From IMG/VR virus record IMGVR_UViG_3300050120_000210, positions 32,001 to 96,000 of that record: a stretch of DNA of 64,000 nucleotides. One strand, 5' to 3'. A model generated the notes under the pieces. That model was not told the DNA's origin and did no database searches. It saw only the letters and a list, made by a program, of their open reading frames with translations. The stretch comes from a virus. Below are positions 3,526-48,792 of the stretch, in pieces; the stretch's first letter is position 1; the number at the start of each line of letters is the position of its first letter. Made by a program: the position numbers and the translations under genes.

Positions 3526-3888
3526 TTACTTCTTGGGGAACATCGCGGCTGCGGCGGCGGCGGCAGCTTCTTGAGCCGTCTCCACTTTCGCGGCCTTCTT
3601 CGTGGCGGCATCAGCTTCAGCGGCGATGACAGCAGTCTTGACATCGTCTTCGCCAGCTTTGGCGGCGCCGAAGTCCTTCATAGCTTCCATCAACGCTTCT
3701 GCGGCGTTGTGATCCTTCGTGAAGACCATGATCGCGCCTGCGAGGGCGCCACCGACCGAAACGATCAGCGCGGCTTGATTGGGGTCGAGAGACATGCCCG
3801 TAGAGGCGAGCAAGGTGACGGCACCCACCCAAGTGGAACGCTCAGCGAGACGGGCGAGAACCCAATCTAGAATAACAGAGAAGTCCAT
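3526..3888 (-). CDS. Membrane protein, holin-like
   Basis: RLAERSTWVG followed by two hydrophobic helices and a charged Ala-rich tail. Confidence 0.55.
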   Translation of the reverse strand: MDFSVILDWVLARLAERSTWVGAVTLLASTGMSLDPNQAALIVSVGGALAGAIMVFTKDHNAAEALMEAMKDFGAAKAGEDDVKTAVIAAEADAATKKAAKVETAQEAAAAAAAAMFPKK

Positions 3889-3900
3889 TGTGTGTTGTCC

Positions 3901-4251
3901 TTAGTTGTCCCGATCCTCGATTTTTCTTTTCCGGGGCGGGGTCGGGGCCGCTTCGGACTGTTTGGCCTCCGGGGCAGCGTCAAGCTTCGGGAGATGCTTC
4001 GCCGCTGCTTCCGCAGGGCTAACAAACACTTCACTCGAAATGTCTCGTAGGGCGACTTGCTTCACAGCCTTGGGGTTCGAAGCATAGTATTCCTGTGCAA
4101 CTTGCTCGCGACGCTTAACGATTTCGCCACGGGCGCCAAGAATGTCTCCGCGCGCGTTCATCGAAGCGTTTCCAAGCGCAATTGCTTTTTCATTCTTCGA
4201 GATCAACTGGCTCATGTCGAGCGTGTGACCGCGCATTGTTCTAACCTTCAT
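3901..4251 (-). CDS. Conserved phage hypothetical protein (GN..MNARGD motif), late gene
   Basis: ORF; TAAATA box upstream at 4283-4288. Confidence 0.65.
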   Translation of the reverse strand: MKVRTMRGHTLDMSQLISKNEKAIALGNASMNARGDILGARGEIVKRREQVAQEYYASNPKAVKQVALRDISSEVFVSPAEAAAKHLPKLDAAPEAKQSEAAPTPPRKRKIEDRDN

Positions 4252-4308
4252 GTAATTCACTCCAATGACATGTGTATGCTGTTATTTATCTTGGCTCCCG
4301 GCATTTCG

Positions 4309-4337
4309 TTGACGAGATCGGAAAAATTGGCTAGAGG
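4309..4337 (+). promoter_or_regulatory. Sigma70-type early promoter
   Basis: TTGACG-17nt-TAGAGG directly before ATG 4343. Confidence 0.55.
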
Positions 4338-4342
4338 GCGTC

Positions 4343-4627
4343 ATGGTTGCGAGTCTCGAAGACAATCGGCGGAAGACCCTGTCGGCGCTCGCCCGGACCT
4401 TGGGAAGACGCCCGTTTTCTGTCATCATTCCGATACTGCCCACCGTCGAGCTTCGTTACGCGAAGGAGCAAGAATGCGAACAGTTCATTGCTGATTCGTG
4501 CAAGCACGGGCTCTGGGCGTTCACGCTGTGGGATTCCGATGAGGATCGGATCAACCAGACCATCAGGATCACTTACTATTTCGAAGATGAACGCGACGCG
4601 ATCCACTTCAAGATGCGGTTTTCATGA
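4343..4627 (+). CDS. Small protein, 'F.DE.DA..FK..F' C-terminal family
   Basis: Ends YYFEDERDAIHFKMRFS. Confidence 0.75.
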   Translation: MVASLEDNRRKTLSALARTLGRRPFSVIIPILPTVELRYAKEQECEQFIADSCKHGLWAFTLWDSDEDRINQTIRITYYFEDERDAIHFKMRFS

Positions 4628-8455: not shown

Positions 8456-9508
8456 ATGCAAGTTCGATCTGCCGACCGCCAAGTCCTTCTCACGAGGGAC
8501 GTATTTCGCGAAGGCGTGTTCGCCCGCGATGGCCACAAATGCGTGTTCTGCGACAAACCGGCCGTAGACGCCCATCACATCCTCGAACGACGCCTATTCG
8601 TCTCGCCCGGCGAGCAAGGCGGCTACTTCATGAACAACGGTGCGTCGGTGTGTGGCGAGCATCACATGGCCTGTGAGATGACCACCATCTCCGTAGAGGA
8701 CGTGCGAATCGCCTGCGGGATCACCAAGCCCGTGATCCCTGCCCATCTCTATTCGGACCATGTTTACGATAAATGGGGCAACGTCGTACTGCCCGATGGC
8801 CGCCGCCTGAAGGGCGAACTGTTCAACGACGCCAGCGTTCAAAAGGTGTTGGGCATGGGCGGCGTGCTCGATCTCTTCACGCATTGGGTGAAATACCCCC
8901 GGACCCATCATCTGCCTTGGTCGGAAGGTCTGACCGAAGATGACCGGATGCTCGACACGCTCGATCACTATCGCGGCAAGCGCGTGATTGTGACTGAGAA
9001 GATGGATGGTGAAAACACCACCATGTATCAGGACTACATCCACGCCCGCAGCTTGGATGGTCGAAATCATTCCTCGCGCAACTGGGTCAAGAACTATTGG
9101 GGCCAGATTTGCGGTGACATTCCCGTGGACTGGCGGCTGTGCGGCGAGAACCTCTTCGCCAAGCATTCGATCACCTACGATGCCCTGCCGACGTATTTCA
9201 TGGGTTTCTCGATGTGGAATGACCGCAACGAGTGCCTGTCGTGGGACGAAACCATCGAATGGTTCACCCTGCTCGGTGTCACGCCGGTGCCAGTGCTGTT
9301 CGACGGCATCTTCGACGAGGCAAAAATCAAGGCGTTGTTCAACGTCAAGGATTGGGAACATCGCGAGGGCTATGTCCTGCGGATCGCCGATGGGTTTACC
9401 TATGGCGAGTTCCGCACTTCGGTATCGAAGTTCGTTCGGAAAAATCATGTCCAAACTGTGAAGCATTGGATGCACGGCAAGCCTGTTGAACAGAATGGGC
9501 TAGCCTGA
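8456..9508 (+). CDS. HNH-like domain fused to ATP-dependent RNA ligase
   Basis: N-terminal RDGHKCVFC...DAHHI...N..SVC..HH; C-terminal KYPRTHHLPWS, EKMDGEN, GENL, EGYVLR, KFVR. Confidence 0.85.
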   Translation: MQVRSADRQVLLTRDVFREGVFARDGHKCVFCDKPAVDAHHILERRLFVSPGEQGGYFMNNGASVCGEHHMACEMTTISVEDVRIACGITKPVIPAHLYSDHVYDKWGNVVLPDGRRLKGELFNDASVQKVLGMGGVLDLFTHWVKYPRTHHLPWSEGLTEDDRMLDTLDHYRGKRVIVTEKMDGENTTMYQDYIHARSLDGRNHSSRNWVKNYWGQICGDIPVDWRLCGENLFAKHSITYDALPTYFMGFSMWNDRNECLSWDETIEWFTLLGVTPVPVLFDGIFDEAKIKALFNVKDWEHREGYVLRIADGFTYGEFRTSVSKFVRKNHVQTVKHWMHGKPVEQNGLA

Positions 9509-15088: not shown

Positions 15089-15919
15089 TTGACGCGCCGG
15101 TTCGAAACTTTCTGCGAGACGCGAGGGATTTCGTTCCACCACGAGGATCACGTTCGATCCTATGATTCCACGACGCTGTTCTGCCCGGCGGGTATGCAGC
15201 AGTTCAAATCCCAGTTCCGAGACCCCAACTACCGGGGAACCGTCTCGAACATTCAGGGATGTCTACGCCTCAATGATCTCGATGAGATCGGCGACGGCAC
15301 CCACCTACTCCACTTCGACATGATGGGCTTGTTCTCCTTCCGCGAACTCAGCGTTCAGGATGCGGTGAACTTTTGGTTCGATTTCCTTGAAGAGATCGGC
15401 CTACGTCCAGACACGGTCACGATCCACCCAGATCGTATGGAGGAGTGGCGCGGGCTCTACGACGGCCGCAACGTCATCGTGAAGCCCGATGTGGAATGCA
15501 TCTGGTCGGACGGTGAAATCGGCGGCTATTGCACCGAGTTCTACATCGACGGTGTCGAGATCGGGAACATCGTCAACACCAACGGCGATTGCATCGACGT
15601 GGGCTTCGGCCTTGACCGTCTGTTGTTGTTCCTCGGAGATATCCCACCAGACAGGATCACCGTGCTCCAACGCGGGATCGGCCAGATTATCAAGTCGGGT
15701 TTCGTGCCGGGCAATAAGCAACAGGGCTACACCCTTCGGCGCCTGTTGCGACTTCTAGTGCGTGAGGGAGGCGATCTAGATCATCCGTTCTTCGAAGAAG
15801 AGCGGGTCCGGCAAAATCTTTTGAGAGAAAAGTTTGAGCGCCTGTCGCCCAAACATGGGGACAAACCACCAGAGTGGTGGATGGACACCCACGGTATCGA
15901 GGTATCCGACTTCAGGTAA
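15089..15919 (+). CDS. Truncated alanyl-tRNA synthetase-like protein (aminoacylation core only)
   Basis: TLFCPAGMQQFK, Q.CLR.NDLDEIGD.TH...F.M.G.F, EIGN, IDVGFGLDR, GYTLRRLLR; true start may be ATG 15072 in another frame. Confidence 0.88.
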   Translation: MTRRFETFCETRGISFHHEDHVRSYDSTTLFCPAGMQQFKSQFRDPNYRGTVSNIQGCLRLNDLDEIGDGTHLLHFDMMGLFSFRELSVQDAVNFWFDFLEEIGLRPDTVTIHPDRMEEWRGLYDGRNVIVKPDVECIWSDGEIGGYCTEFYIDGVEIGNIVNTNGDCIDVGFGLDRLLLFLGDIPPDRITVLQRGIGQIIKSGFVPGNKQQGYTLRRLLRLLVREGGDLDHPFFEEERVRQNLLREKFERLSPKHGDKPPEWWMDTHGIEVSDFR

Positions 15920-18996: not shown

Positions 18997-19280
18997 TACC
19001 ACGCCTTGGCAGGGGCTTGCTTCGATAGTACCCAACGCACCTCGCTATTGGACCATCGGGCGTAGAAGTACCCTTTTCCCTCGTCGTCCAACAGGGCTTT
19101 CTCGGCATCAGTAAGGTCTTGATGCTTCAGACCCATCCGGCCTTCGCGATAGACCACCGCATCGTCGGCCAGCATGTCGTAGACAACCTTGACGACATAG
19201 GTTGCTTCTTCACGAGCACGGCGCTCTTTTTCTTCCGTGATGGTTTTTGGCCGGGCGGCCCAGTTGATGCGTTGGGTCAT
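18996..19280 (-). CDS. Hypothetical protein
   Basis: ATGA-coupled ORF starting MTQRINW. Confidence 0.6.
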   Translation of the reverse strand: MTQRINWAARPKTITEEKERRAREEATYVVKVVYDMLADDAVVYREGRMGLKHQDLTDAEKALLDDEGKGYFYARWSNSEVRWVLSKQAPAKAW

Positions 19281-19738
19281 GACTTTCCCGATTGGAGGCG
19301 AGCCCGAATCTTCGTCAGGCGAGAACAAAACTCGCGCTCGGTCAACACGGTTTCACGCGCATCATTTTTGCCGATTGCATGGGTCAGGTTGGACGAACCG
19401 GTCGCCAGTAGCGCCCGACGAAACCCGTCGTTCTCTGCCAATGCGTCGAACGCATCATCCAACAGAGTTTGATATTCGTCGCCGTGACGATCAAAGGCGA
19501 CACCGGCCCACCAAAGGGTCTGTCGCTGTTTCCACGCCTTGTTGCGTTTCTGGCCACGACGTTTCGCGGCGAGACCGACGAGCTTGCAGACTTCGACTTG
19601 GATGTGGACCTTGTCGAACTTGAACGCCTGAACCAGTCCTTCCATGGAGTTGCACTCCACCCCTCGGAAGACGAAGGGATGTGGGGAGAAATTGCTCAGT
19701 TTGTCTGCGGGCCAGCCTTTGCCCGAGCCAATGTCCAT
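19277..19738 (-). CDS. NADAR-family protein (T4 gp30.3-like)
   Basis: LSNFSPHPF...SMEGLVQAFKF...QTLWW.G...ALLATG..LTH.IG...TVLTE.EF. Confidence 0.85.
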   Translation of the reverse strand: MDIGSGKGWPADKLSNFSPHPFVFRGVECNSMEGLVQAFKFDKVHIQVEVCKLVGLAAKRRGQKRNKAWKQRQTLWWAGVAFDRHGDEYQTLLDDAFDALAENDGFRRALLATGSSNLTHAIGKNDARETVLTEREFCSRLTKIRARLQSGKS

Positions 19739-20059: not shown

Positions 20060-20548
20060 TCAAGTTGCTTCGCCTGCTACCACTGCCTGTTGAACGCGAG
20101 CACGCAGCCTATACATATTGTAGATGTATTCCCACTCGGTCAGCGTTGTCCGTGTTGGATCATGATGTCCAATAACGTGGGTCAACAAGTCCACGCCAGT
20201 CTCGAACAAAGACTGGCGGAAGATTGGGTTTTGATCGAAGCAGGCATCGTAACCGCGTTCGATCAAGGTATGGAATTCACGAGACAATCTCGGATATGCC
20301 TTACCTCTCCACCACAGGGTTTGGGTATCTCGCCAGTCGTTCCCAACCTGTCCGACTTTGTAGGCTCTGTAGCCCACAAGAACTGCGATCATTTCTTGTT
20401 CTTCAAGCCCTTCGAACTTGAGAGATTGCAGCCAGCCTTCGATCCCGCCGCACTGAACGCCATCCATGACGAAGGGATATGACGCGAAGTTAGAAAGCGC
20501 CTTTCCGAGCCCGCCATTTCGGGAACCAAGATCGAGAATTGCAGTCAT
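20060..20548 (-). CDS. Second NADAR-family protein (T4 gp30.3-like)
   Basis: LSNFASYPF...IEGWLQSLKF...QTLWWRG...LTHVIG...TTLTE.E. Confidence 0.85.
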   Translation of the reverse strand: MTAILDLGSRNGGLGKALSNFASYPFVMDGVQCGGIEGWLQSLKFEGLEEQEMIAVLVGYRAYKVGQVGNDWRDTQTLWWRGKAYPRLSREFHTLIERGYDACFDQNPIFRQSLFETGVDLLTHVIGHHDPTRTTLTEWEYIYNMYRLRARVQQAVVAGEAT

Positions 20549-20747
20549 CTAGCCACCTCTAGAAACAAGATAGCCCCCATCTATTGTGGGGTCAAAATTC
20601 AACATTATGATAACCGACGATTTCATGCGGGTGCCGGTTTTCCATTAACAACCTTGAACTTTTTTCTTGACGAACGGTTGACAGCAAATGCAGGCCAAGT
20701 TACTTGCTGAAATCCCTACCGCTGCTTTCCAACAGGAGTGCCCTTAT

Positions 20748-21335
20748 ATGCAGCAATCGGAAGGCGGAAACGCCCAATTCAAGACTGAGATGGCCGTGAG
20801 CATGTTCAATGCTTACGCGGCCAACAACCACGTCGCCGCCACGGAAATTCCGGGTCTCATGGCGACCTTCTCCAAGGAACTGGACGTTCTGATGAACGTG
20901 GCGGCCCCCGCCACCGAACTGGAAAAGAAGGAACCTGCGGTCGCGATCCGCAAGTCCGTCACCCCGGATCACATCATCGACCTGTTCACCGGCCGCAAGT
21001 TCAAGTCCCTGAAGCGTTACCTCCGCACGTCGCACAACATGACGCCGGAGCAGTATCGCGCCTACTGGAACCTGCCGAAGGACTACCCGATGGTCGCCCC
21101 GGCCTACGCGCAACGTCGTTCCGACCTCGCGAAGTCCATGGGTCTCGGCCAAGGTGGGCGCCAGCCCGCCAAGACGGCTCCCGCCGCCGCTGAAGCGCCG
21201 AAGGCTCCCAAGGCCGCCGCCCCCAAGAAGGCCGCTGCCCCGAAAGCTCCGAAAGCCGCCAAGGCCCCGAAGGCTCCCGCTGCTGCCGCCGCTCCGGCTG
21301 AAGCTCCGGCCGCGTCGGAAACCGTCGCTTCCTAA
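20748..21335 (+). CDS. mucR: MucR/Ros family regulator with Ala/Lys/Pro-rich tail
   Basis: PAVAIRKSVTPD, KFKSLKR.L...MTPEQYR..W.LP.DYPMVAP.Y...RS.LAK.MGLG; AGGAG RBS before ATG 20748. Confidence 0.92.
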   Translation: MQQSEGGNAQFKTEMAVSMFNAYAANNHVAATEIPGLMATFSKELDVLMNVAAPATELEKKEPAVAIRKSVTPDHIIDLFTGRKFKSLKRYLRTSHNMTPEQYRAYWNLPKDYPMVAPAYAQRRSDLAKSMGLGQGGRQPAKTAPAAAEAPKAPKAAAPKKAAAPKAPKAAKAPKAPAAAAAPAEAPAASETVAS

Positions 21336-21361: not shown

Positions 21362-21392
21362 GAGGCCGCCGGGGTGACTCGGCGGCCTTTTT
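21362..21392 (+). terminator. Rho-independent terminator
   Basis: GGCCGCCG/CGGCGGCC stem followed by TTTTT. Confidence 0.85.
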
Positions 21393-21490
21393 CGTGCCTG
21401 AAATTATATTTGGACTTTGCTTACGGCCGTGCTAAATAGAATCTAACAGTGGGAACAAACTCACTGGCCATACACATAGAAGGATTTTCT

Positions 21491-22645
21491 ATGGCCCATA
21501 TCACCCGTGCGCGGGAACATGACATTTGCGTCTTCATTGGACGCTTTCAACCCTTGCACGCTGGACATATGGGCGTGATTCTCAAGGCGTTGGAATACGC
21601 CGAGTTCCTCTTCATTCTCATCGGCTCTGCCAACGTCGCCCGTCGTCCTGACGCCAATCCCTTTTTCGCGGCCGAACGCATCGAGATGCTGCTCGCGTCT
21701 CTGCCGCCAGAGGCGCGCGAGCGAGTGATCTTCATTCCCATGGAAGATAGTGACTACGAAACTATCGATTGGGTGAATGCGGTCAACCGCGCCGTGACGA
21801 CCGAAGCGATCAAGATCATGGGCAAGCTCGATTCGAGCATCAGCCTGATCGGCCACTCCAAAGACCACACGTCTTTCTACCTGAAGCTCTTCCCGCAGTG
21901 GAACACTATCGACGTGGTGTCTTCTCGTCCCCTCGACGCGACCATACTGCGGAATCAGTTCTTCACGGGCAACACGGCTGTCGTCGATAACATGTTCCGC
22001 TACGCCGTGGAAAACCAAGACATCCCGCTAGGCGCCATCAACTGGCTGCGAGACTTCCAAAAACTGGATGTCTATGGCGAACTCGTCGAAGAGATGGAGT
22101 TCTATCGATCCTGTCACGCCCGTTGGGATGCGGAATCGTGGCCTGCGAGCCGCAACACTGTCACCGGTGATGCTCTGATTCTGCAATCCAACCATGTCCT
22201 GCTGATCCAGCGCGGTGAGTTCCCTCAGAAGGGAACGTGGGGTATGCCCGGCGGCCACACCAATACGAACGAAACTGTTGCCGATTCTGCGCTGCGCGAA
22301 GGCTACGAAGAGACCGGCATCAAAGTGCCCAAGATCGTTTTCGAAAAGGCGTTCGTCGGCAAAGACTATTTCGATGCTCCCCGCCGCGATCCGCGTGGCC
22401 GGTATATCGGACACGTCTTCATGTATCACTTGCAACCTTCGGCGCCGTCCTACGACACCACCAAGTCGCCTGTGGAGAACCGTCGCCGGGTGAAGGACGC
22501 GTTGTCTCTGCCGAAGGTGAAGGGCATGGACGACGCCATGGGTGCCAAGTGGTGGCACCTCGACGACCTCAAGCGGTCTGAGATGTTCTTGGACCACTAT
22601 TCCATCATTCGCAAAATGACTGCCCAGTTCGGGAAGGGAAATTAA
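21491..22645 (+). CDS. nadM: Bifunctional NMN/NaMN adenylyltransferase - ADP-ribose pyrophosphatase (NadM-Nudix)
   Basis: GRFQPLHAGH, GSA..NPF...ER, GHSKD.TSFYL..FPQW; Nudix box GG.....E.....ALREGYEETGI; RDPRGR; FLDH. Confidence 0.93.
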   Translation: MAHITRAREHDICVFIGRFQPLHAGHMGVILKALEYAEFLFILIGSANVARRPDANPFFAAERIEMLLASLPPEARERVIFIPMEDSDYETIDWVNAVNRAVTTEAIKIMGKLDSSISLIGHSKDHTSFYLKLFPQWNTIDVVSSRPLDATILRNQFFTGNTAVVDNMFRYAVENQDIPLGAINWLRDFQKLDVYGELVEEMEFYRSCHARWDAESWPASRNTVTGDALILQSNHVLLIQRGEFPQKGTWGMPGGHTNTNETVADSALREGYEETGIKVPKIVFEKAFVGKDYFDAPRRDPRGRYIGHVFMYHLQPSAPSYDTTKSPVENRRRVKDALSLPKVKGMDDAMGAKWWHLDDLKRSEMFLDHYSIIRKMTAQFGKGN

Positions 22646-22646
22646 A

Positions 22647-24008
22647 ATGGACTTCGCGAAACGCGCACATGACCACAGCTTCCACATCGACCCCATCGTG
22701 CGGTCGCTGTTCGACACCGATTTCTACAAGCCGCTGATGCACCAGTTCATCTGGTCGCGCCACCCGAACACGCAGGTTACGTTCGGCGTGACCAACCGCA
22801 CGAAAGACGTGCCGCTCGCCGATATCATCGACGAGGGCGAACTGCGTGAGCAACTCGACCATGTCAAGTCGCTGACCTACACGAAATCGGAACTCATCAA
22901 CCTGAAAGGCCAGTCCTACTACGGTCAAGAGGGCATCTTCCGGCCGGGTTACATCGACTTCCTGCGGACCTTCCGCATGGGCGACTATAATCTCGAACGC
23001 GAGCGCGCGTTCAACGGCGGCGTGGGCTACGACACCGGCCAGTTCCGGTTGGAGTTCGACGACAAGTGGACGCACAGCAGCCCTTGGGAACTGCACTCGC
23101 TGACCGTCGTCAATGAACTTCGCAACCGGGCGCTCATGAAGTCGATGAGCAAGTCCGAACTGGACATCATGTATGCCCGCGCCAAGGTGAAGCTATACGC
23201 CAAGCTGAAGGCTCTGGCCGACGACCCGGCCCTCGAAGGCATCAGCGTCTCCGACTTCGGCACCCGCCGTCGCCATTCGTTCCTCTGGCAGGAATATGTC
23301 GTGCAGATGATGGCCGAAGTTCTCGGAGACCGGTTCGGCGGCACCTCGAACGTCTTCCTCGCCATGAAGCATGGTTTCGAAGCGCGGGGCACCAACGCGC
23401 ACGAACTGCCGATGGTCTACGCGGCTCTGGCCAAGAACGATGAAGAACTCGCGCAGGCGCCCTACAAGCTGTGCCACGACTGGGAGGCCGATGTTCGCGG
23501 CCCGCTGCAAATCATGCTGCCCGACACTTTCGGCACCACGGGGTTCCTGAAGAACGCCCCGCACGGCATGGCTGACTGGGCGGGTGCGCGCCCGGACTCC
23601 AAGAAAGCCAAACCCGCCATCGAAGAACTGATCGCTTACTGGGAATACCATTCCAAGGACCCGAAAACGAAGTTGGTCATCCCGAGCGATGGCCTCGACG
23701 TTCGTGTCCCCGGCTATGAGCCGCAGGGCGAAGACATCCCGACCATCTATCGCGAGTTCAAGGGCCGTGTTCGGATGTCGTTCGGTTGGGGAACGCTGGC
23801 GACCAATGACTTCGTCGGCTGCCATCCGAATCAAGCCGACTACATGAAGCCCGTCAGCCTCGTGTGCAAGGTGAAGTCGGCCGAAGGTCGCCCGGCGGTC
23901 AAGCTGTCGGACAACTACAACAAGGCCACTGGCCCCGCTGAAGAGATCGAACGCTATCGCCGCGTCTTCGGTATCGAAGGGCTGGCTGGCGTCCCGGTCA
24001 CCGTCTGA
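22647..24008 (+). CDS. pncB: Nicotinate phosphoribosyltransferase
   Basis: DTDFYK, SDFGTRRRHS, GTSNV, GTNAHE (phospho-His), PDTFG, RPDS, SDGL, FGWGT, KLSDN. Confidence 0.93.
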   Translation: MDFAKRAHDHSFHIDPIVRSLFDTDFYKPLMHQFIWSRHPNTQVTFGVTNRTKDVPLADIIDEGELREQLDHVKSLTYTKSELINLKGQSYYGQEGIFRPGYIDFLRTFRMGDYNLERERAFNGGVGYDTGQFRLEFDDKWTHSSPWELHSLTVVNELRNRALMKSMSKSELDIMYARAKVKLYAKLKALADDPALEGISVSDFGTRRRHSFLWQEYVVQMMAEVLGDRFGGTSNVFLAMKHGFEARGTNAHELPMVYAALAKNDEELAQAPYKLCHDWEADVRGPLQIMLPDTFGTTGFLKNAPHGMADWAGARPDSKKAKPAIEELIAYWEYHSKDPKTKLVIPSDGLDVRVPGYEPQGEDIPTIYREFKGRVRMSFGWGTLATNDFVGCHPNQADYMKPVSLVCKVKSAEGRPAVKLSDNYNKATGPAEEIERYRRVFGIEGLAGVPVTV

Positions 24009-24018
24009 GGAAAGAAAC

Positions 24019-24264
24019 ATGCATACCAAAGTCGAACGCAAGTTCACCCTCGACGAAGCGGACATCAAAGCCATCGTGGCGGCTCATCTGAGCACGCTCG
24101 GCGATCTTTCTGTCTCGCCGGAACAAGTCATCATCCACATCAAGGACAGCACGCCGTATGGCGGGGGAGGTGATGATGGAAAGCCTGCCGTGCTCACGGT
24201 GACGGCAGTTATCGAAGAACCGCCCGGCCCGTTTCTGCTGTCAGCGCATAGGACTCGCCGGTAA
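24019..24264 (+). CDS. Small hypothetical protein
   Basis: GAGG RBS; inside NAD operon. Confidence 0.6.
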   Translation: MHTKVERKFTLDEADIKAIVAAHLSTLGDLSVSPEQVIIHIKDSTPYGGGGDDGKPAVLTVTAVIEEPPGPFLLSAHRTRR

Positions 24265-24275
24265 GGCGATTATCG

Positions 24276-24303
24276 TTGACCAAATCAATATTCAAGATAG
24301 CCT
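24276..24303 (+). promoter_or_regulatory. Internal sigma70-type promoter for pncA-nadE
   Basis: TTGACC-16nt-TAGCCT. Confidence 0.5.
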
Positions 24304-24327
24304 CTGAATAGAGGCAGAAGGATCAAA

Positions 24328-24966
24328 ATGAACAAGATTGCAATCAAGCAAGGGACCGACATTCTGGGTTCCATCGACCAGCAGGTTGACTTTGGCGACG
24401 ACGGCAAGCTGCCGGTCGCCGGTGGCAAGGCCACGGTCGAACCCACCAATCGTGTGGGCAAGAAGTTTCGGCGCGCGTTCAAATCGCAGGATTGGCACCC
24501 GGCCGACCACGGTTCGTTCGCCAGTCAACACGGCGTGGCCCCCTTCACGATGATTAAGTTGGGTGGTCTCGATCAAGTCGCGTGGACGGATCACTGCGTG
24601 CAGGGCACCGAAGGCGCCGAGTTCCTCCCCGGCCTCGATCTGCCAAACACCGTACTGGTCGTCCGCAAGGGCATGAACCGGATGATCGACAGTTACTCGG
24701 CGTTCTTCGAGAACGATGGCACGACGCCGACCGGCCTGAACGGCGCGCTGGCCGAACTCGGAATCAAGCGCATCTTCCTGACTGGTTTGGCCCGCAACTT
24801 CTGCGTTGCCTTCACGGCGCTGGATGCCATTCGGCTTGGTTACGAAGTCTTCATCTTCGAAGACGCCGTCGCCTCGATCCAAGATGGCTCGGACGAGGCT
24901 ATGACCGAAAAACTACTCGCCGCTGGCGTGAAGCTCATCACCACGGCCGACATCGAGGGGATTTGA
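24328..24966 (+). CDS. pncA: Nicotinamidase/pyrazinamidase
   Basis: DQQVDF..G.L.V, QDWHP..H.SF, W.DHCVQGT.GA, KG...DSYSAF, GLA.NFCV catalytic Cys. Confidence 0.93.
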   Translation: MNKIAIKQGTDILGSIDQQVDFGDDGKLPVAGGKATVEPTNRVGKKFRRAFKSQDWHPADHGSFASQHGVAPFTMIKLGGLDQVAWTDHCVQGTEGAEFLPGLDLPNTVLVVRKGMNRMIDSYSAFFENDGTTPTGLNGALAELGIKRIFLTGLARNFCVAFTALDAIRLGYEVFIFEDAVASIQDGSDEAMTEKLLAAGVKLITTADIEGI

Positions 24967-24967
24967 G

Positions 24968-25618
24968 ATGACCGAATCGTTCGAAAGCAAATTCACCAAA
25001 ATCGGTGACGTGACGCTTCCCTACTATGCGGGAACCCGCGTCATGATGCTCCCGGTCATCATCGGCAACGAGGCCAGCATTCCCGATCTGCTGGCCGGTG
25101 AATGGAAGGCGACCTTCCATGAACTGTCCGAACTCGCCAATCCCGCCCACAAGGGCAAGGTTGGTTACCTGACCATCGACGAGAAAATTGTTCAACCTGC
25201 CAAGACCCATCGCCGCGAAGGCAAACACGTCGATGGCGTGTTCCAAGGCAGCACCGGTAGCTGGGGCGGCGGTGGAGGATGGGGCTCCGTGGGCAACGGT
25301 ATGATTACCGTCGCCTCGCACCCCGGTTGTCGTGCGTGGAACCAAACCTTCATCGGTCGCACCGGATACGAAGGCGAATGCGATCACCTCGCCGACCAGT
25401 GCGAAGGTGAAGGCACGCTGTTTGGCGCCGGTGAAGTGTTCTGGGTGGATGGATTGTGCGTCCATGAGTCGGTGGCCATGACGCGGCCGACTCCGCGCCA
25501 GTTCGTGCGACTCTCGCTGCCGTCGAATGCGGCGTGGTTCGAGGGCTACACAGAAAATCCGCTGGGCGTGCTTCCCACCGGCCCGATCCTCCCGCGCCGT
25601 TCGTTCATGGACGCCTGA
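24968..25618 (+). CDS. Putative 2OG-Fe(II)/cupin-fold oxygenase
   Basis: HRREGKHVDG (HxD), distal VHES and R.F.R. Confidence 0.55.
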   Translation: MTESFESKFTKIGDVTLPYYAGTRVMMLPVIIGNEASIPDLLAGEWKATFHELSELANPAHKGKVGYLTIDEKIVQPAKTHRREGKHVDGVFQGSTGSWGGGGGWGSVGNGMITVASHPGCRAWNQTFIGRTGYEGECDHLADQCEGEGTLFGAGEVFWVDGLCVHESVAMTRPTPRQFVRLSLPSNAAWFEGYTENPLGVLPTGPILPRRSFMDA

Positions 25619-25620
25619 AT

Positions 25621-25932
25621 ATGACGGCTCCCGCACTTCATTCCTTTGAATATGCGCTGGTGGTGGTGTCTCAACGCCTGCTGCCGTCCGCATATCCGAC
25701 TGAAGTTGCGCGGGAGCTTTCCACCGTGCTCAACCGAGAAGTCAGCATCCCGCAAGTCGTGCTCTCGCTGAACCGGCTTGAGGAAAATGGCTTCGTGGTC
25801 ACCACGATCAGCGAAGCCCGGCCCGTTCGCGGTGGCCGTAAGCGGCGGATGATCTATGTCACGAAGTCCGGCGCGGATGCTGCGGTTCAGACGCGTGATT
25901 TCTACAATAACCTTCAGTTCGAGAAGGACTAA
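25621..25932 (+). CDS. PadR-like winged-helix regulator
   Basis: AY..EV..EL, L.RLEENG.V, GGR.RR...VT..G. Confidence 0.8.
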   Translation: MTAPALHSFEYALVVVSQRLLPSAYPTEVARELSTVLNREVSIPQVVLSLNRLEENGFVVTTISEARPVRGGRKRRMIYVTKSGADAAVQTRDFYNNLQFEKD

Positions 25933-25935
25933 AAA

Positions 25936-27705
25936 ATGAAGATCAAGATCGCCGTCGTGCAATTCAATCCCAAGGTGGGAGCACTGGAAGACAACGCCGC
26001 CCGGATGCTCGGACTGTATTCGGCCGCCGCCGTGTCCGGCGCCGATCTCGTCGTGTTCCCCGAATGCGCGCTCACTGGCTATCCGCTGGAAGACCTCGTG
26101 TTGCGTCACAGCTTCATGGACGCCGTGGTCGTGGAATCGAAGGCGTTCATCGACGCGGTTTATGCCACCGGCCTGAAAGCATCCGTGATCTTTGGTACGC
26201 CCATCCACGGTGTGGCCATCAACGGCGATGATCGGTCGGGCAATGGCGCCATCCTGTTTGATCCCACCACGGGCAAATGGGAATCGGTTCTCAAATACGA
26301 ACTGCCGAATTACGGCGTGTTCGACGAGAAGCGCATTTTCCAACGCGGCGAAGACCCGATCCATACCATTGAATGGCGTGGCAAGAAAATCGGCCTGATG
26401 ATCTGCGAAGACGCGTGGTTCTCGACCGTCACGAATCGGCTCTACACGGATGACGCCGTCTTCCTCATCTCGATCAACGGTTCGCCGTTCGAGTCCGGCA
26501 AGAACGTCATCCGCCACAACGTCGTCAAGGAACGGATGAACGAAACCGGCCTGCCGTTCCTCTACGTGAACATGGTCGGTGGACAAGACGAACTGGTGTT
26601 CGACGGTGGGTCTTTCCTCTACGACAGCAACGGTCTGCAAGAGGCTCCCTACTTCGAAGATGGTCTCTTCTTTTTCGACACAGAAATCACCGAAGAGAAA
26701 CGATCCCAGTCGATGTCGTGGGGTGATCCGCCACCTCCGGCAATCATGACCTTCACCGACTTCCCAACCATCGTTCCCACCGGCATCGGCGCGATCTACC
26801 AAGCCTGCGTGCTCGGTCTGCGGGACTACGTGACCAAGCAGGGTTTCAAGAGCGTCTTGCTGGGATATTCCGGCGGGGTGGACTCCGGTATCGTCGCCGC
26901 CATGGCCTGCGATGCTCTGGGTCACGAGAACGTTCTGTTGGTCCGTCTACCCTCCAATTTCTCATCGGACGGTTCGCTCACCGACGCCGCTGATGGGGCC
27001 AAGCGGCTCGGTGCGGCGATGCGGACGATCTACATCGAAGGGATCGTCAACGAACTGCGGCGGTCCTACACCACGGCGACATACGGTCATGACGAAAACG
27101 CGCCGGGTGCTTCACAGTTGGACAAGCACCTCGAAGGTGTGGCCGACGAGAACATCCAAGCTCGCGCTCGCGGGACCGTCCTGATGGCCATCAGCAATCA
27201 GGAAGGCCATATGCTCTTGACCACCGGCAACAAGTCGGAAGTCAGCGTGGGCTATTCGACGCTCTACGGCGACATGTCGGGCGGCTTCAATCCGATCAAG
27301 GATTGCTACAAGGTCACGGTCTGGGACCTCTGCCGCTGGCGGAACGCCTTGACCGCTCAGCAAATCCGCGACTTCGGGTTCATGGGCGCGGCGACGGAGG
27401 TTGTGCCGGAAGCAATCATCGTCAAGCCGCCGTCCGCCGAACTTCGGCCGGACCAACAAGACAGTGACAGCCTTCCCGCCTATCCGATTCTCGACGCGAT
27501 GCTGAAGGCGATGATCGAAGACGAACTTAGCGTCAACGAGATCGTTGACAAGCTGGGTCTTGATATCGACTTGGTCAAACGCATCCGGCGACTGGTGGAC
27601 AACGCAGAATACAAGCGCCGTCAAGCGGCGCCGGGCGTGAAGATCACCAGCAAGATTCACGGCCGGGATCGTCGCTACCCCATCGTCAACGCGTGGAGGA
27701 ACTGA
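25936..27705 (+). CDS. nadE: Glutamine-dependent NAD+ synthetase
   Basis: Nitrilase domain triad (FPE, K..LPNYGVFDEKR, ICED); synthetase SGGVDS, ENIQAR.RG, TGNKSE..VGY.TLYGD, KPPSAEL, EYKRRQ. Confidence 0.96.
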   Translation: MKIKIAVVQFNPKVGALEDNAARMLGLYSAAAVSGADLVVFPECALTGYPLEDLVLRHSFMDAVVVESKAFIDAVYATGLKASVIFGTPIHGVAINGDDRSGNGAILFDPTTGKWESVLKYELPNYGVFDEKRIFQRGEDPIHTIEWRGKKIGLMICEDAWFSTVTNRLYTDDAVFLISINGSPFESGKNVIRHNVVKERMNETGLPFLYVNMVGGQDELVFDGGSFLYDSNGLQEAPYFEDGLFFFDTEITEEKRSQSMSWGDPPPPAIMTFTDFPTIVPTGIGAIYQACVLGLRDYVTKQGFKSVLLGYSGGVDSGIVAAMACDALGHENVLLVRLPSNFSSDGSLTDAADGAKRLGAAMRTIYIEGIVNELRRSYTTATYGHDENAPGASQLDKHLEGVADENIQARARGTVLMAISNQEGHMLLTTGNKSEVSVGYSTLYGDMSGGFNPIKDCYKVTVWDLCRWRNALTAQQIRDFGFMGAATEVVPEAIIVKPPSAELRPDQQDSDSLPAYPILDAMLKAMIEDELSVNEIVDKLGLDIDLVKRIRRLVDNAEYKRRQAAPGVKITSKIHGRDRRYPIVNAWRN

Positions 27706-29682: not shown

Positions 29683-30687
29683 TTACGAAATGACGAAACC
29701 CTCGTTGGACGCGTTCAATATTCGCTGACCAAGCCAGTGAACGTCCTTAACGTTCAGCGAATTACCGATAGCTTTGTAACGGACGGTGTCCGAAGCCATT
29801 CCTCGGCCGAACGGCACGAGTGTGTGATTGTCGGGCATTCCCATAAGCCGCTCGCACTCCAACGGCGATAGCTGACGGACATGCGGTGAGACTCCGTCGT
29901 CGATCAATGCAAAAGCCTTGTCAGAGCCCCCAGTAGAGGCGCGGAGGCAATTGGCCACCTCGTCACCGATCTCAAGCTCTTCGCCGTCTACGCGCCCTCT
30001 GAAGGCTACTGTGAACGCGCGCGATCCAGAGCGAGCTTCAAGAGCAGCGGCAAGTGCTTTCCGCGAGCGATCAGGTGTTGGTAGAGCTTCTGTGCCCGAC
30101 CTTTCTTCAAAAAGTATCCTCCGTGGATCGGCCCCGTCTCTAGGACAGGCCACAAGGAAGACGCGCTCGCGTCGTTGCGGAACTCCTGAGTGTTTGGCGT
30201 CAAGGAGCCGCCAAGCGATGTTTCGACGGGGTCCAGACACACAACCAGCGTGCGTCCATCCTTCCCCTGCTGGGACCAGCGGAGTGTCTTCTCCGGCCAA
30301 CGCTGCAAGTAGGCATCCAAAGGCATTGTTTTTGTCACTCAAAATTCCCTTCACGTTCTCGAAGCAGACGAACGGAGGGTTGATGTCGTCAGCCAAATTA
30401 CAGAAGCTCAGTGTCAGGGCGCCACGGGGATCGGCCGCGCCAGCGCGCCTACCGGCCAGAGAGAACGCCTGACAGGGAGTCGATCCCCACAGGATATCCA
30501 CCTTGTCGGCCCATTCTTTCCCGTCGATCTTGGTCAAGTCCCCAAGGTCCGGCACATGCGGCCAACGATAGGCTAGAACAGCCTTGGGGAACGGTTCGAT
30601 CTCGGAGAAAGCCACAGGCGTGAAGCCAAGCGGCTCCCACGCCAGAGAGACCGCATCAACGCCGCTGCATACGGTGAGGTAGCGCAT
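29683..30687 (-). CDS. C5-cytosine DNA methyltransferase (alpha chain)
   Basis: CSG motif I, GSTPCQAFS, ENV, PQRRERVF, ECERLMG.P, YKAIGNS. Confidence 0.93.
   Translation of the reverse strand: MRYLTVCSGVDAVSLAWEPLGFTPVAFSEIEPFPKAVLAYRWPHVPDLGDLTKIDGKEWADKVDILWGSTPCQAFSLAGRRAGAADPRGALTLSFCNLADDINPPFVCFENVKGILSDKNNAFGCLLAALAGEDTPLVPAGEGWTHAGCVSGPRRNIAWRLLDAKHSGVPQRRERVFLVACPRDGADPRRILFEERSGTEALPTPDRSRKALAAALEARSGSRAFTVAFRGRVDGEELEIGDEVANCLRASTGGSDKAFALIDDGVSPHVRQLSPLECERLMGMPDNHTLVPFGRGMASDTVRYKAIGNSLNVKDVHWLGQRILNASNEGFVIS
30006..30338 (-). CDS. Nested out-of-frame methyltransferase beta chain (M.EcoHK31I beta-like)
   Basis: Same-strand alternative frame inside the MTase; T.NT.EF.NDA.ASSL..VLETG...YFL...RGK.LP.LL..AL resembles known beta polypeptides. 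Confidence 0.7.
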   Translation of the reverse strand: MTKTMPLDAYLQRWPEKTLRWSQQGKDGRTLVVCLDPVETSLGGSLTPNTQEFRNDASASSLWPVLETGPIHGGYFLKKGRAQKLYQHLIARGKHLPLLLKLALDRARSQ

Positions 30688-45929: not shown

Positions 45930-48740
45930 TTATTCAATGGGGGTCGCGTCCCAATGGGCAACCGCATCCGCATCCCGCGCCGACAAATCGGGGTAGCGAG
46001 GGTCGCTCCCGACATCGGTCGTGATCCGCCGCGAGCGAGCGCACTTCGTGCCTTCGGCCGGAAGAACCAAGATCGACACTTCTTCGGCCAGAGCGATGAC
46101 CGCTTGGCTCGTGCGGAACACATCCTCCGCTTCGATCCCGTCGAACGCATCGAACAGGTCTTGCGGGAGATACACGATCACCTTCGCATCGAGCGCCGAG
46201 CCGATCTCCTTGGCCGCCCGCTTCTCTTCGAGAACCGGCGTGACCAACGACAGGACGTGGCGGACCTTCGTCCAGCGTTCGTTCTCGACCGCACACATGG
46301 GGGCTTGAGCGCCCATATGGGGAGTTGGACCGAATCGCCCAGCGAGCCCCGGCATTTGCATGTGGTCGCTCATTTCGGCCACGGTATAGGGCAGGATCGG
46401 CGCCAGCCATTGGGCCATAACCGACACGATATGGAACAACGTCGCGCGACAGGCCAGACGACGGACACTGTCCGATCTGTCACAATAAAGCGCGTCCTTG
46501 CGGATGTCGAAGTAGAACGCCGACAGATCATTCGTGCTGAAATCAAGCAGCAATTTGCAGACATCGTTGAACCGATATTCACGATATGCAGCTTCAATTT
46601 GCGGCGTCAATTCATGCAGCAAATAGAGCATGTATTTTTCGAGCGGAGGATACTCATAGAAGAGATCATCGCGGGTCTCGCCGGGGCCGTCACCAAATCC
46701 CTGCAAATTGCTCACGAGATAGCGCAGCGTGTTCCGCAGCCGCTTATACATGCTGGCCGTAGTCTTGAGGATTTCGTCACCGACGCGGGTATCCTGCGTG
46801 TAGTCGCCCAACGCGACCCACAGACGCAACACGTCAGTGCCGTATTTCTTAGCCTCGACAAGAGGATCAACGACGTTGCCCTCGCTCTTCGACATTTTCT
46901 TCCCCTTGTCGTCGAGGACGAAGCCATGGGTCAGAACTGAGCGGAACGGAAGCGCGTCCGCCATTGCAACGCCGACAAGCGCGGACGATCCGAACCAGCC
47001 ACGCGCCTGATCGGAGCCTTCGAGATAGAGATCGGCGGGTGGATTATCGTCGCCTGTCAACAGATGGCTGCACCCACTATCGAACCAGACATCGAGCACA
47101 TCCATGACCATCTCGAACTCGTGTTCGCGGCCCGCGTATTCCGTGTGCGCGAACCATTCCGCGATACTGAACTTCCACCAAGCATCACCGCCGTGAGCGG
47201 TGAAGGCGTTGTTGATCTTGGAGTTCAGTGCATCACTGAGCAACGGCTTACCCGTTTCCTTGTTCAGGAAAATCGCCATGGGCGTCCCCCAAACACGTTG
47301 GCGGCTAACCAACCAGTCAGGCCGGGACTCGACGGCCGCCCGCAAGCGATTGCCGCCGGACTCCGGCAGGAAGGTCACGTCTTCCAGTTCGCGCAGCGCA
47401 TTCACGCGGATGTCTTCAATGGCATCCATCGAAATGAACCACTGCGGCGTAGTGCGGTAGATCAGCGGCGCCTTGGAACGCCACGAATGCGGATAGTTGA
47501 TCGTCACTTTCTCGGACGAGAGCACGGTTTCGTTGACCGCCAAGAGCTTGATGATCTTCGCGTTCGTGAACTCGAAGATGTAGTCGCCCTTCGGCGTCTG
47601 CTCCAAGACTGACACTCCGGCCAATCCATGCACGTTCGATGTGTAGCGACCATCACCGCCCACGGTGGTTGGCACTTCTCCGAGGCGCGCTTCGTTCCAG
47701 CAAACAAAATCTTCGGGACCATGCTCTGGTGCAATGTGGACGAGGCCCGTCCCGGTGTCCGACGTGACGTGCTTGGCCGGGATCAGCGGCACGGAAAAAT
47801 GGAAACCACCGTCCTCGAACGCGCCACGAAGCGGATGCTCGCACGTCACTCCAACGGGGTTGAAATCTTCGACGAAGTCATATTCCGTCACCTTGATCGC
47901 GGCCATGGTTGCTTCAACCAGAGCTTTAGCCATGACGAGTTTATCGCCAACAGAAACGCTCTCGTTCGCGCTGGCAGTGACCTTGTAGGTGCCGTATTCG
48001 ATGGCAGGGTTGTAGGCCACAGCCCGGTTGGCAGGCAGTGTCCAAGGCGTCGTCGTCCAGATCACCACGCTGGTGTCTGCCAGACCTTCCAACCAGAATC
48101 GAACGTGCACCGAGGTTACACGAATATCGGCTTTCACCACTTCCGCTTCAGCAAGCGCCGTTTCTTCCACTACGCTCCACAGCACTGGCTTCACGCCGCG
48201 ATAGAGCATGTTGGACATCATCATCATGTGAAGCGTCTGAGAGATGGTCGCTTCGGATTTGAAGTCCATCGTCAAGTAGGGGTTGTTCCAGTCACCGACC
48301 ACACCGAGCGACTTGAACTGCGTGCGCTGAGCATCCACCCAGCCTTTCGCATAGTCGCGGCAAAGCTGGCGAAACTCCGGCGCCGTGTAGTCAGATTTGT
48401 TTTGCCCTGCGGCGAGCAGGTTCTTTTCAACTTGCCACTCGATGGGCAGTCCATGGCAATCCCAGCCCGGAATATACTCGACGTTCTGGCCAGCCGCCCA
48501 GCGCGAACGCACGACGAAATCCTTGAGGATTTTGTTGAGTGCGTGGCCCATGTGGATGTCACCGTTGGCGTAGGGCGGCCCGTCGTGCAGCACGAAGGTT
48601 GCCCGGCCCCGCCACCGGATGCTCATCTCGTCTTCGTAGTGACTCGCGAACCGAGCACGAATCCCCGCCTCGTCCTTAACCCCTTGAAGGGAAAAGTCCG
48701 TCTTCGGCAGGAAAAGTGTCTCTTTGTAATCGCGGGTCAT
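45930..48740 (-). CDS. ileS: Isoleucine--tRNA ligase (type 1)
   Basis: LHDGPPYANG.IHMGH, PGWDCHGLPIE, IWTTTPWTLP editing domain, DW..SRQR.WG, EGSDQ.RGWF, KMSKS. Confidence 0.97.
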   Translation of the reverse strand: MTRDYKETLFLPKTDFSLQGVKDEAGIRARFASHYEDEMSIRWRGRATFVLHDGPPYANGDIHMGHALNKILKDFVVRSRWAAGQNVEYIPGWDCHGLPIEWQVEKNLLAAGQNKSDYTAPEFRQLCRDYAKGWVDAQRTQFKSLGVVGDWNNPYLTMDFKSEATISQTLHMMMMSNMLYRGVKPVLWSVVEETALAEAEVVKADIRVTSVHVRFWLEGLADTSVVIWTTTPWTLPANRAVAYNPAIEYGTYKVTASANESVSVGDKLVMAKALVEATMAAIKVTEYDFVEDFNPVGVTCEHPLRGAFEDGGFHFSVPLIPAKHVTSDTGTGLVHIAPEHGPEDFVCWNEARLGEVPTTVGGDGRYTSNVHGLAGVSVLEQTPKGDYIFEFTNAKIIKLLAVNETVLSSEKVTINYPHSWRSKAPLIYRTTPQWFISMDAIEDIRVNALRELEDVTFLPESGGNRLRAAVESRPDWLVSRQRVWGTPMAIFLNKETGKPLLSDALNSKINNAFTAHGGDAWWKFSIAEWFAHTEYAGREHEFEMVMDVLDVWFDSGCSHLLTGDDNPPADLYLEGSDQARGWFGSSALVGVAMADALPFRSVLTHGFVLDDKGKKMSKSEGNVVDPLVEAKKYGTDVLRLWVALGDYTQDTRVGDEILKTTASMYKRLRNTLRYLVSNLQGFGDGPGETRDDLFYEYPPLEKYMLYLLHELTPQIEAAYREYRFNDVCKLLLDFSTNDLSAFYFDIRKDALYCDRSDSVRRLACRATLFHIVSVMAQWLAPILPYTVAEMSDHMQMPGLAGRFGPTPHMGAQAPMCAVENERWTKVRHVLSLVTPVLEEKRAAKEIGSALDAKVIVYLPQDLFDAFDGIEAEDVFRTSQAVIALAEEVSILVLPAEGTKCARSRRITTDVGSDPRYPDLSARDADAVAHWDATPIE

Positions 48741-48763
48741 TGGCACTCCAATATCAATCGGCA

Positions 48764-48792
48764 ATTATCGGTTTCGTTTACGAATTTGTCAA
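48764..48792 (-). promoter_or_regulatory. Sigma70-type promoter for ileS
   Basis: TTGACA-17nt-GATAAT. Confidence 0.75.

Follow-up and report, generated by a model that had tools for sequence, protein, structure and literature searches.

A predicted nicotinamide-to-NAD+ operon with NadM-Nudix, PncB, PncA and NadE in a clade of T4-like jumbo phages

To what end would a phage carry, in a single operon, all the enzymes predicted to lead from nicotinamide to NAD+? NAD+ depletion is among the commonest ways in which bacteria abort phage infection. We asked this question of a stretch of 64,000 nucleotides (hereafter the window) that covers bases 32001–96000 of IMG/VR virus record IMGVR_UViG_3300050120_000210, a single contig of 149,124 bp (G000). 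At 21491–27705 on its plus strand, four enzyme genes, nadM-nudix, pncB, pncA and a glutamine-dependent nadE, are tightly packed into one co-oriented unit, which an earlier sequence-only reading had put forward as a candidate third NAD+ reconstitution pathway (NARP). Our analysis suggests, with a probability of about 0.7, that this operon is a phage-borne route from nicotinamide to NAD+, most likely using what NAD+ cleavage leaves behind to uphold or rebuild the pool of NAD+ in the infected cell; the same estimate jointly covers its transcription from its own host-type promoter. The four genes, in window coordinates, are:

21491–22645, plus strand: nadM-nudix, archaeal-type adenylyltransferase for nicotinamide or nicotinate mononucleotide (NMN/NaMN), fused to an ADP-ribose pyrophosphatase (Nudix)
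22647–24008, plus strand: pncB, type I nicotinate phosphoribosyltransferase
24328–24966, plus strand: pncA, nicotinamidase of isochorismatase fold
25936–27705, plus strand: nadE, glutamine-dependent NAD+ synthetase, a glutaminase-synthetase fusion of 589 amino acids (aa)

Matches in Pfam, NCBIfam and the PDB, together with the translations, confirmed the positions and common orientation first read for these genes, and showed that their catalytic motifs are intact. The nadM-nudix gene starts at ATG 21491 with an AAGGA ribosome-binding site (the longest open reading frame, ORF, runs from GTG 21449), and its product carries CTP_transf_like (PF01467) and NUDIX (PF00293) domains with an intact GRFQPLHAGH motif and Nudix box (G-x5-E-x7-RE-x2-EE-x-G). 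It fits phage family phrog_395 (E 8e-61), a NadM-Nudix fusion that occurs in 474 GenBank phage records. Its closest solved structures, 2QJO (E 7e-53) and 2QJT, are NadM-Nudix enzymes that align over ~300 residues, which bears out the proposal that the Nudix domain is of the ADP-ribose-splitting type; we predict it to be a NadM-linked ADP-ribose pyrophosphatase.

In PncB, Pfam detected NAPRTase_N (PF17767, 64 bits) and the NAPRTase barrel (PF04095, 110 bits), both above their cut-offs. All PDB matches (6/6) were NAPRTases, with Agrobacterium PncB (1YBE, E 4e-138) as the best, and the translation contains both GTSNV and GTNAHE, His252 of the latter being invariant in alignment A1. We take the histidine of GT-x-AHE to be the ATP-coupled phospho-histidine site. 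PncA belongs to the Isochorismatase family (PF00857, E 1.7e-22) and has a nicotinamidase as its best solved structure (2WT9, E 1.7e-45), against which its DWHP, HC-QGT, RKG and FCVA blocks, presumably with catalytic and metal-binding roles, could be aligned. NadE combines CN_hydrolase (PF00795) and NAD_synthase (PF02540) domains, scores 610 bits against NF010588/PRK13981 (cut-off 479) and 609 bits against phrog_36784, and matches 5KHA, 3N05 and 4F4H over its full length (E ~1e-120); residues read by eye include an apparent Glu/Lys/Cys glutaminase triad and the SGGVDS loop. In the closest relative recovered, a Logan contig (L043) whose PncB is 83% identical, NadE has 345 aa and is without the glutaminase domain (3542–4579), so that the type of NadE appears to be exchanged even among close relatives.

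With activities assigned by homology, the pathway would run in four steps. PncA would deamidate nicotinamide to nicotinate, which PncB, in an ATP-coupled reaction with phosphoribosyl pyrophosphate (PRPP), would convert to NaMN. The NadM domain, replacing the bacterial NadD, would then adenylylate NaMN to nicotinate adenine dinucleotide (NaAD), and the glutamine-dependent NadE would amidate NaAD to NAD+; a bacterial precedent for this order of the last two steps is Acinetobacter, in which NadM works with a fused, glutamine-type NadE (PMC3376133). In a fifth reaction, the Nudix domain fused to NadM would cleave ADP-ribose to AMP and ribose-5-phosphate, and the latter would re-enter as PRPP through the host Prs, or through a phage Prs as in the complete relative described below (G001). 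The NAD+ might be cleaved by host NADase defences or by the phage's own NAD+-consuming enzymes.

We surveyed the occurrence of the operon in other phages. Megablast of the operon against GenBank phages gave no match, and relatives in IMG/VR were found with a three-sequence PncB alignment, a single-PncB query having returned none. The scan yielded 38 PncB loci. Among 37 of these (the copy of Agrobacterium phage Atu_ph07 excluded), NadE lay within 10 kb in 31, a PncA-like gene in 26 and an adenylyltransferase in 25, and all three were present within that distance in 23/37. The order Ros-NadM/Nudix-PncB-PncA-NadE (Ros being the Ros/MucR gene upstream of the operon) is kept in L004, L005, L006, L009 and L027, and in L028 without Ros; the architecture of the window also recurs in Logan and ENA contigs. 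The proposal of a different four-enzyme route holds in one part, in that the enzymes are intact and could lead from nicotinamide through nicotinate, NaMN and NaAD to NAD+, whilst the gene set itself is not new, given Atu_ph07, Sinorhizobium phage Phosso and these 23 loci.

PncB also occurs in 13 GenBank phage records only, and several of these are apparently bacterial contaminants. Among records with a match to PncB, PncA or NadE, Acinetobacter phage MD-2021a, Listeria phage LM and Salmonella phage S.Kent were not counted as phage, as they contain ileS/valS or are tiny contigs. The 735-kb metagenomic phage LR756501 has PncA, NadE and PncB within 8 kb. All four genes form a compact group in L037, to which we gave little weight because the record is classed as a provirus at 60% completeness and may be host DNA. 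Of the 80 bacterial loci whose PncB is most similar, none carries NadM-Nudix or glutamine-dependent NadE within 8 kb (0/80), which suggests that the operon was assembled, or at least retained, in phages; PncA adjoins PncB in 10/80. The clustered four-enzyme set is recurrent in these phages and is no block copy from the bacteria that these loci represent.

The closest complete IMG/VR relative, G001 (the contig of L005; 578,292 bp), has direct terminal repeats and a completeness rating of 100%, and its operon is identical in order to that of the window. Together with G002 and G003 it makes up a set of relatives rated 97–100% complete. PncB is the single NAPRTase-family gene in G000, G001, G002 and G003, and neither NadV nor PnuC (PF04973) was found in any of the four. 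For G001–G003, the operon is therefore the only recognisable pyridine-salvage route. A survey by Iyer et al. 2022, which covered only NadV, NadM and NadR, held that phage NadM always works with NadV (PMC9503650); judged by gene content, the window clade contradicts that generalisation, as three complete or nearly complete relatives pair NadM with PncB and are without NadV.

Several points weigh against our interpretation. NadM-Nudix is a divergent member of its family and falls below the NCBIfam equivalog cut-off (best model NF003786, 281 against 397 bits), PncA narrowly misses that of nicotinamidase NF008623 (172 bits, cut-off 174), and PncB clears its own curated cut-off by only 1.5 bits. 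The absence of a prs gene, noted earlier for the window, extends to the whole 149-kb fragment, on which Pribosyltran_N had no match; G001 does encode a canonical Prs (C1:322373–323287, minus strand; 452 bits against a cut-off of 297), ~70 kb from its NAD operon and adjoining a tryptophanyl-tRNA synthetase gene. By textbook stoichiometry, a deamidating route costs more ATP than NARP1 or NARP2, and for this reason it might be slow compared with an active NADase. Our literature search found no activity, expression or phenotype data for the window operon or homologous phage operons, nor any experiment in which a PncA/PncB/NadE module of a phage was set against NADase defences. Some NadM-family enzymes, as in Francisella, strongly favour NMN over NaMN (PMC3376133), so that adenylylation of NaMN by NadM is not assured. 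Finally, a sirtuin (SIR2 family) is encoded in G001 (185284–185805) and in G003, where it lies ~9 kb from pncB, and supplying such phage enzymes, over evading defences, may therefore be the main role.

What the operon is for can be read in two ways. By analogy with NARP2, a counter-defence role is plausible. Stated in full, the operon would be a fourth, deamidating, NadV-independent NAD+ reconstitution pathway of alphaproteobacterial jumbo phages that protects against Thoeris, DSR, SIR2-HerA and SEFIR. Both products of cleavage would be recycled, nicotinamide by PncA and PncB, and ADP-ribose by Nudix together with a Prs of phage or host origin, and the operon would be tuned by a conserved leader and, in some phages, by a protein resembling 2-oxoglutarate (2OG)/Fe(II) dioxygenases. 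We hold this composite proposal tentatively, at somewhat less than even odds. Equally live is the feeding of the phage's own NAD+ and ADP-ribose biochemistry, and the roles are not mutually exclusive. The operon would then serve general metabolic support, recycling nicotinamide from phage NAD+ consumers (the sirtuin and ADP-ribose-handling proteins) and providing NAD+ for the long infection of a jumbo phage, with protection from NADases as a side effect; this, too, is possible but short of probable. It gains from the SIR2-family proteins of the complete relatives and from genes just upstream of the operon, which are syntenic in L004, L005 and L009:

18143–18814, minus strand: Macro-domain protein, encoded 2.6 kb upstream of the operon and weakly similar (43 bits) to the macrodomain of the antitoxin DarG
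19277–19738 and 20060–20548, minus strand: two paralogues of the T4 gp30.3 family (PF08010), between the Macro-domain gene and the Ros/MucR gene

The Macro-domain protein is itself a possible counter-defence gene that would remove ADP-ribose. A NADAR label for the gp30.3-family genes was not confirmed, as these had neither a Pfam NADAR match nor a PDB sequence match. Metabolic support is also how the pathway was read in NAD-jumbo phages, which have many NAD+-consuming enzymes (PMC11662467). Infection by PA5oct turns on the pncA-pncB1-nadE operon of the host (PMC7318152), so that a jumbo phage apparently gains from extra flux through this route even where no defence is named. On the other side, no NAD+-dependent DNA ligase was found in G000, G001, G002 or G003, and NARP2, initially taken for metabolic salvage (KVP40), has since been reported to act against NADase defences (10.1101/2024.02.11.579819). 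Should the operon provide metabolic support only, it would still clearly exemplify a phage that maintains four steps of a cofactor pathway in one operon.

A different sequence of reactions would be of the Francisella type, in which NadE would convert NaMN to NMN and NadM would then form NAD+ from NMN; in another variant, NadM would act on NMN only and host NadD would supply NaAD. We consider these variants unlikely. The window has NadM in place of NadD, the NadM family uses NMN efficiently, and the window NadM matches the Francisella NadM-Nudix structure 2QJT; moreover, in Francisella the replacement of NadD by NadM accompanies a NadE turned NMN synthetase (PMC3376133). However, the window NadE is the fused glutaminase form and, with 610 bits, lies well above the 479-bit cut-off of the NAD+ synthase equivalog. 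In Francisella, the NMN synthetase is a NadE with a single domain and of ammonia type, which we count against this order. In Acinetobacter, a bifunctional NadM is documented together with a fused NadE (PMC3376133), consistent with our preferred order through NaAD.

Still less probable, and already contradicted by the sequence, is that the phosphoribosyltransferase is really NadV/Nampt or Namat-like and the locus an ordinary variant of NARP2 or NARP1. Its proponents could point to the NAPRTase superfamily fold (PF04095) that these enzymes share and to a weak match with the phage NAMPT family phrog_448 (31.6 bits), and to nothing else. The hidden Markov model comparison that the earlier reading had proposed gave 380.5 bits for NCBIfam NF003704/PRK05321 (cut-off 379), the PncB subfamily, with no NAMPT model among the NCBIfam matches and with NAPRTase_N in place of NAMPT_N (PF18127), which was not found; the 1YBE match and the place of the enzyme among alphaproteobacterial PncBs in the tree point the same way, and no Prs- or Adps-like gene was found on the contig. 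The enzyme is thus, as first proposed, of PncB type, not NadV, Nampt or Namat, with nicotinate as its predicted substrate.

A FastTree phylogeny of 158 PncB sequences, in which support values are local only and long branches need caution, groups the window PncB with L004 and L005 in a clade of 12 that has good support. The clade in turn sits within a larger group with proteins of Allosphingosinicella, Sphingosinicella and Sphingomonas, among alphaproteobacterial, mainly sphingomonad, PncBs, whilst the clade of Atu_ph07 and Phosso and a third viral clade branch apart from it. From this nesting and the adjoining Ros/MucR gene, we infer that the host of the window phage is alphaproteobacterial, possibly a sphingomonad.

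Judged by its genes, G000 is phage and not host chromosome, in line with the earlier view. CheckV estimates its completeness at 26%, corresponding to ~26% of a T4-like jumbo phage of ~570 kb. It contains a T4 Gp23 major capsid gene (312 bits), which G001 has as well, and the clade to which the module belongs consists of T4-like jumbo phages of ~560–580 kb. That the stretch could be host chromosome or a mis-binned bacterial contig, as might be argued from the bacterial type of PncB, PncA and NadE, from the ~57–59% identity of PncB to sphingomonad PncBs and from aminoacyl-tRNA synthetase genes on the contig, is hardly credible and already contradicted by Gp23, both gp30.3-family genes and similarity to the phage RNA ligases of phrog_24030 on that same contig, by its standing as an IMG/VR virus record, and by the syntenic, complete 578-kb relative with terminal repeats. 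The order NadM-PncB-PncA-NadE is also kept in G003 (the contig of L028; 278,859 bp, rated 100% complete), in which Gp23 had no match, so the operon may have moved between distinct lineages of jumbo phages.

The window also bears genes for translation and RNA repair:

8456–9508, plus strand: match to the phage RNA ligase family
15089–15919, plus strand: alanyl-tRNA synthetase-like domain in a short ORF
45930–48764, minus strand: full-length isoleucyl-tRNA synthetase

Aminoacyl-tRNA synthetase genes are a known feature of very large phages, and this translation and RNA-repair load is of the kind met with in them.

We next consider how the operon may be expressed. The features that flank it are:

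20688–21335, plus strand: Ros/MucR-family protein with a long Ala/Pro/Lys-rich tail, directly upstream of the operon
21364–21392: strong terminator after the Ros/MucR gene (−28.2 kcal/mol, z −4.8 by folding)
~21405–21503, plus strand: promoter-like TTGGAC-N17-TAAATA (−10 box at 21433–21438) and a leader of ~55 nucleotides with two hairpins, before nadM
29683–30687, minus strand: C-5 cytosine DNA methyltransferase, 2 kb downstream of nadE, also near the operon in L004 and L043

The terminator and the nadM promoter were read directly from the sequence and checked by folding and alignment; a consensus promoter and terminator scan gave nothing useful on the plus strand and overlooked both. Alignment of six syntenic phage loci showed a conserved TTGAC-like box, an N17 spacer and an invariant TAAATA before nadM, consistent with transcription of the operon from its own host-type promoter. 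In the leader, the second hairpin pairs both the region of the ribosome-binding site and the AUG, and RNAalifold found 11 pairs, 4 of them with compensatory changes, at a weak energy of −8.8 kcal/mol. The leader may be a translational control element. A by-eye check for a pseudoknot between loop and start codon found no pairing consistent across the six loci, and Rfam, queried with the leader and the intergenic region, returned sub-threshold matches only, mostly over the terminator hairpin. The adjacency of Ros/MucR gene and operon is kept in L004, L005, L006, L009, L027 and ENA contigs, and the Ros/MucR protein could regulate the operon or mimic a host silencer protein.

Within the unit lie three further ORFs that the earlier reading did not mention:

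24019–24264, plus strand: 81-aa ORF, not conserved in most related operons
24968–25618, plus strand: accessory protein of 216 aa that resembles 2OG/Fe(II) dioxygenases (fold: double-stranded beta-helix)
~25618–25932, plus strand: small ORF of ~104 aa, possibly PadR-like winged-helix (the longest ORF starts at 25534)

The 216-aa protein matches phrog_8970 (E 1e-32), a large, highly conserved phage and prophage family; across 452 homologues, His87, Asp89, His166, Arg177 and Arg181-x-Ser183 are invariant. A Foldseek search of the PDB with its AlphaFold2 model (pLDDT 91) gave no match at E <= 0.001, and the weak matches were mostly Fe/2OG dioxygenases; judging from the invariant residues and the model, the protein is probably a 2OG/Fe(II) dioxygenase. 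In L043 and in ENA contigs its ORF likewise lies between pncA and nadE, and the family is also found without adjacent NAD genes. The 81-aa ORF had no Pfam or NCBIfam match and one weak tblastn match, in L017 only. The small ORF matched Pfam PadR below the family cut-off (E 0.032) and had no tblastn match in L001–L041.

How does the operon compare with known systems? The label of a third NARP, and the novelty that it implied, could not be kept: NARP3 was assigned in 2026 to PnuC with NadR (PMC13464706), and Preiss-Handler clusters of jumbo phages have been on record since 2024. Li et al. 2024, in Microbiome, found complete salvage or Preiss-Handler pathways in 174/668 gut jumbo phages, and reported clustered pncB-nadD-nadE (e.g. 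Kuafu_71) and phage pncA from sequence (PMC11662467); pncA, pncB, nadM and nadE have also been listed as viral auxiliary genes (PMC12647753). The kind of module is thus already known from sequence data, and the variant described here differs from the described clusters. Both are clustered, deamidated routes through PncB and NadE in jumbo phages. In the present operon, however, NadM-Nudix replaces NadD, NadE is the fused glutamine-dependent form, and PncA lies inside the operon, so that the entry substrate would be nicotinamide rather than nicotinate. Furthermore, the hosts are apparently Alphaproteobacteria and not gut Bacteroidota, and G001–G003 have no other recognisable salvage route.

Two cultured T4-like jumbo phages of Alphaproteobacteria, Sinorhizobium phage Phosso (PV764938) and Agrobacterium phage Atu_ph07 (MF403008), have PncBs 51% identical to that of the window. 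In Phosso, genes for NadE, PncB, Nudix, an adenylyltransferase and an isochorismatase-family hydrolase are clustered; its NadE is single-domain, unlike the fused form here. In Atu_ph07, an annotated ADP-ribose pyrophosphatase lies 3–5 kb upstream of pncB, and tblastn placed adenylyltransferase-like and PncA-like genes beside pncB, likewise at 3–5 kb, whereas the glutamine-dependent NadE is encoded elsewhere in the genome. Atu_ph07 also carries PnuC, which we found here, and NadR, according to its genome paper (PMC6102473). Both phages differ from the window in having Nudix and adenylyltransferase as separate genes, in gene order and in the separate clade of their PncBs. Going by the PncB relatives and these two phages, our reading is that the four-enzyme module is the norm among a large group of giant phages whose alphaproteobacterial hosts are associated with soil and plants. 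As Atu_ph07 grows on Agrobacterium tumefaciens and Phosso on Sinorhizobium meliloti, the idea is directly testable.

Among cellular systems, the NAD network of Acinetobacter (PncA, PncB, bifunctional NadM and fused NadE) is similar in using NadM for NadD together with a fused glutamine-dependent NadE (Sorci et al. 2010, as cited in PMC3376133). The best structures for the window PncA and NadE, 2WT9 and 5KHA, are a further likeness to an Acinetobacter-type network. That network is cellular, with its genes dispersed, whereas here they form one phage operon.

NARP2, the KVP40-type salvage by NadV and NadM-Nudix (Lee et al. 2017, as cited in PMC9503650), shares with the window the same phrog_395 fusion, the same input (nicotinamide, PRPP and ATP), the same output (NAD+) and, plausibly, the same selective pressure. 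Here, by comparison, PncA and PncB take the place of NadV and NadE contributes a further step, so that the route has four enzymes and deamidated intermediates; of the NARP2 pair, G000–G003 have NadM and no NadV was found. The text of 10.1101/2024.02.11.579819 describes NARP1 and NARP2 and makes no mention of PncA, PncB or NadE. NARP1 (Adps with Namat) and NARP3 are likewise phage routes by which NAD+ is restored after NADase attack, and NARP1 also re-uses ADP-ribose. They have no enzymes in common with the present operon, which would re-use ADP-ribose only indirectly, as ribose-5-phosphate. On G000 (~26% complete), Pribosyltran_N was not found and the single NAPRTase-family gene is pncB, unlike NARP1; as for NARP3, PF04973 was not found in G000–G003, NadR not having been searched separately. 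With three NAD+-rebuilding phage pathways characterised, the module would add a route without Adps, Namat, NadV, PnuC or NadR, so that an anti-defence annotation guided by those markers would miss it.

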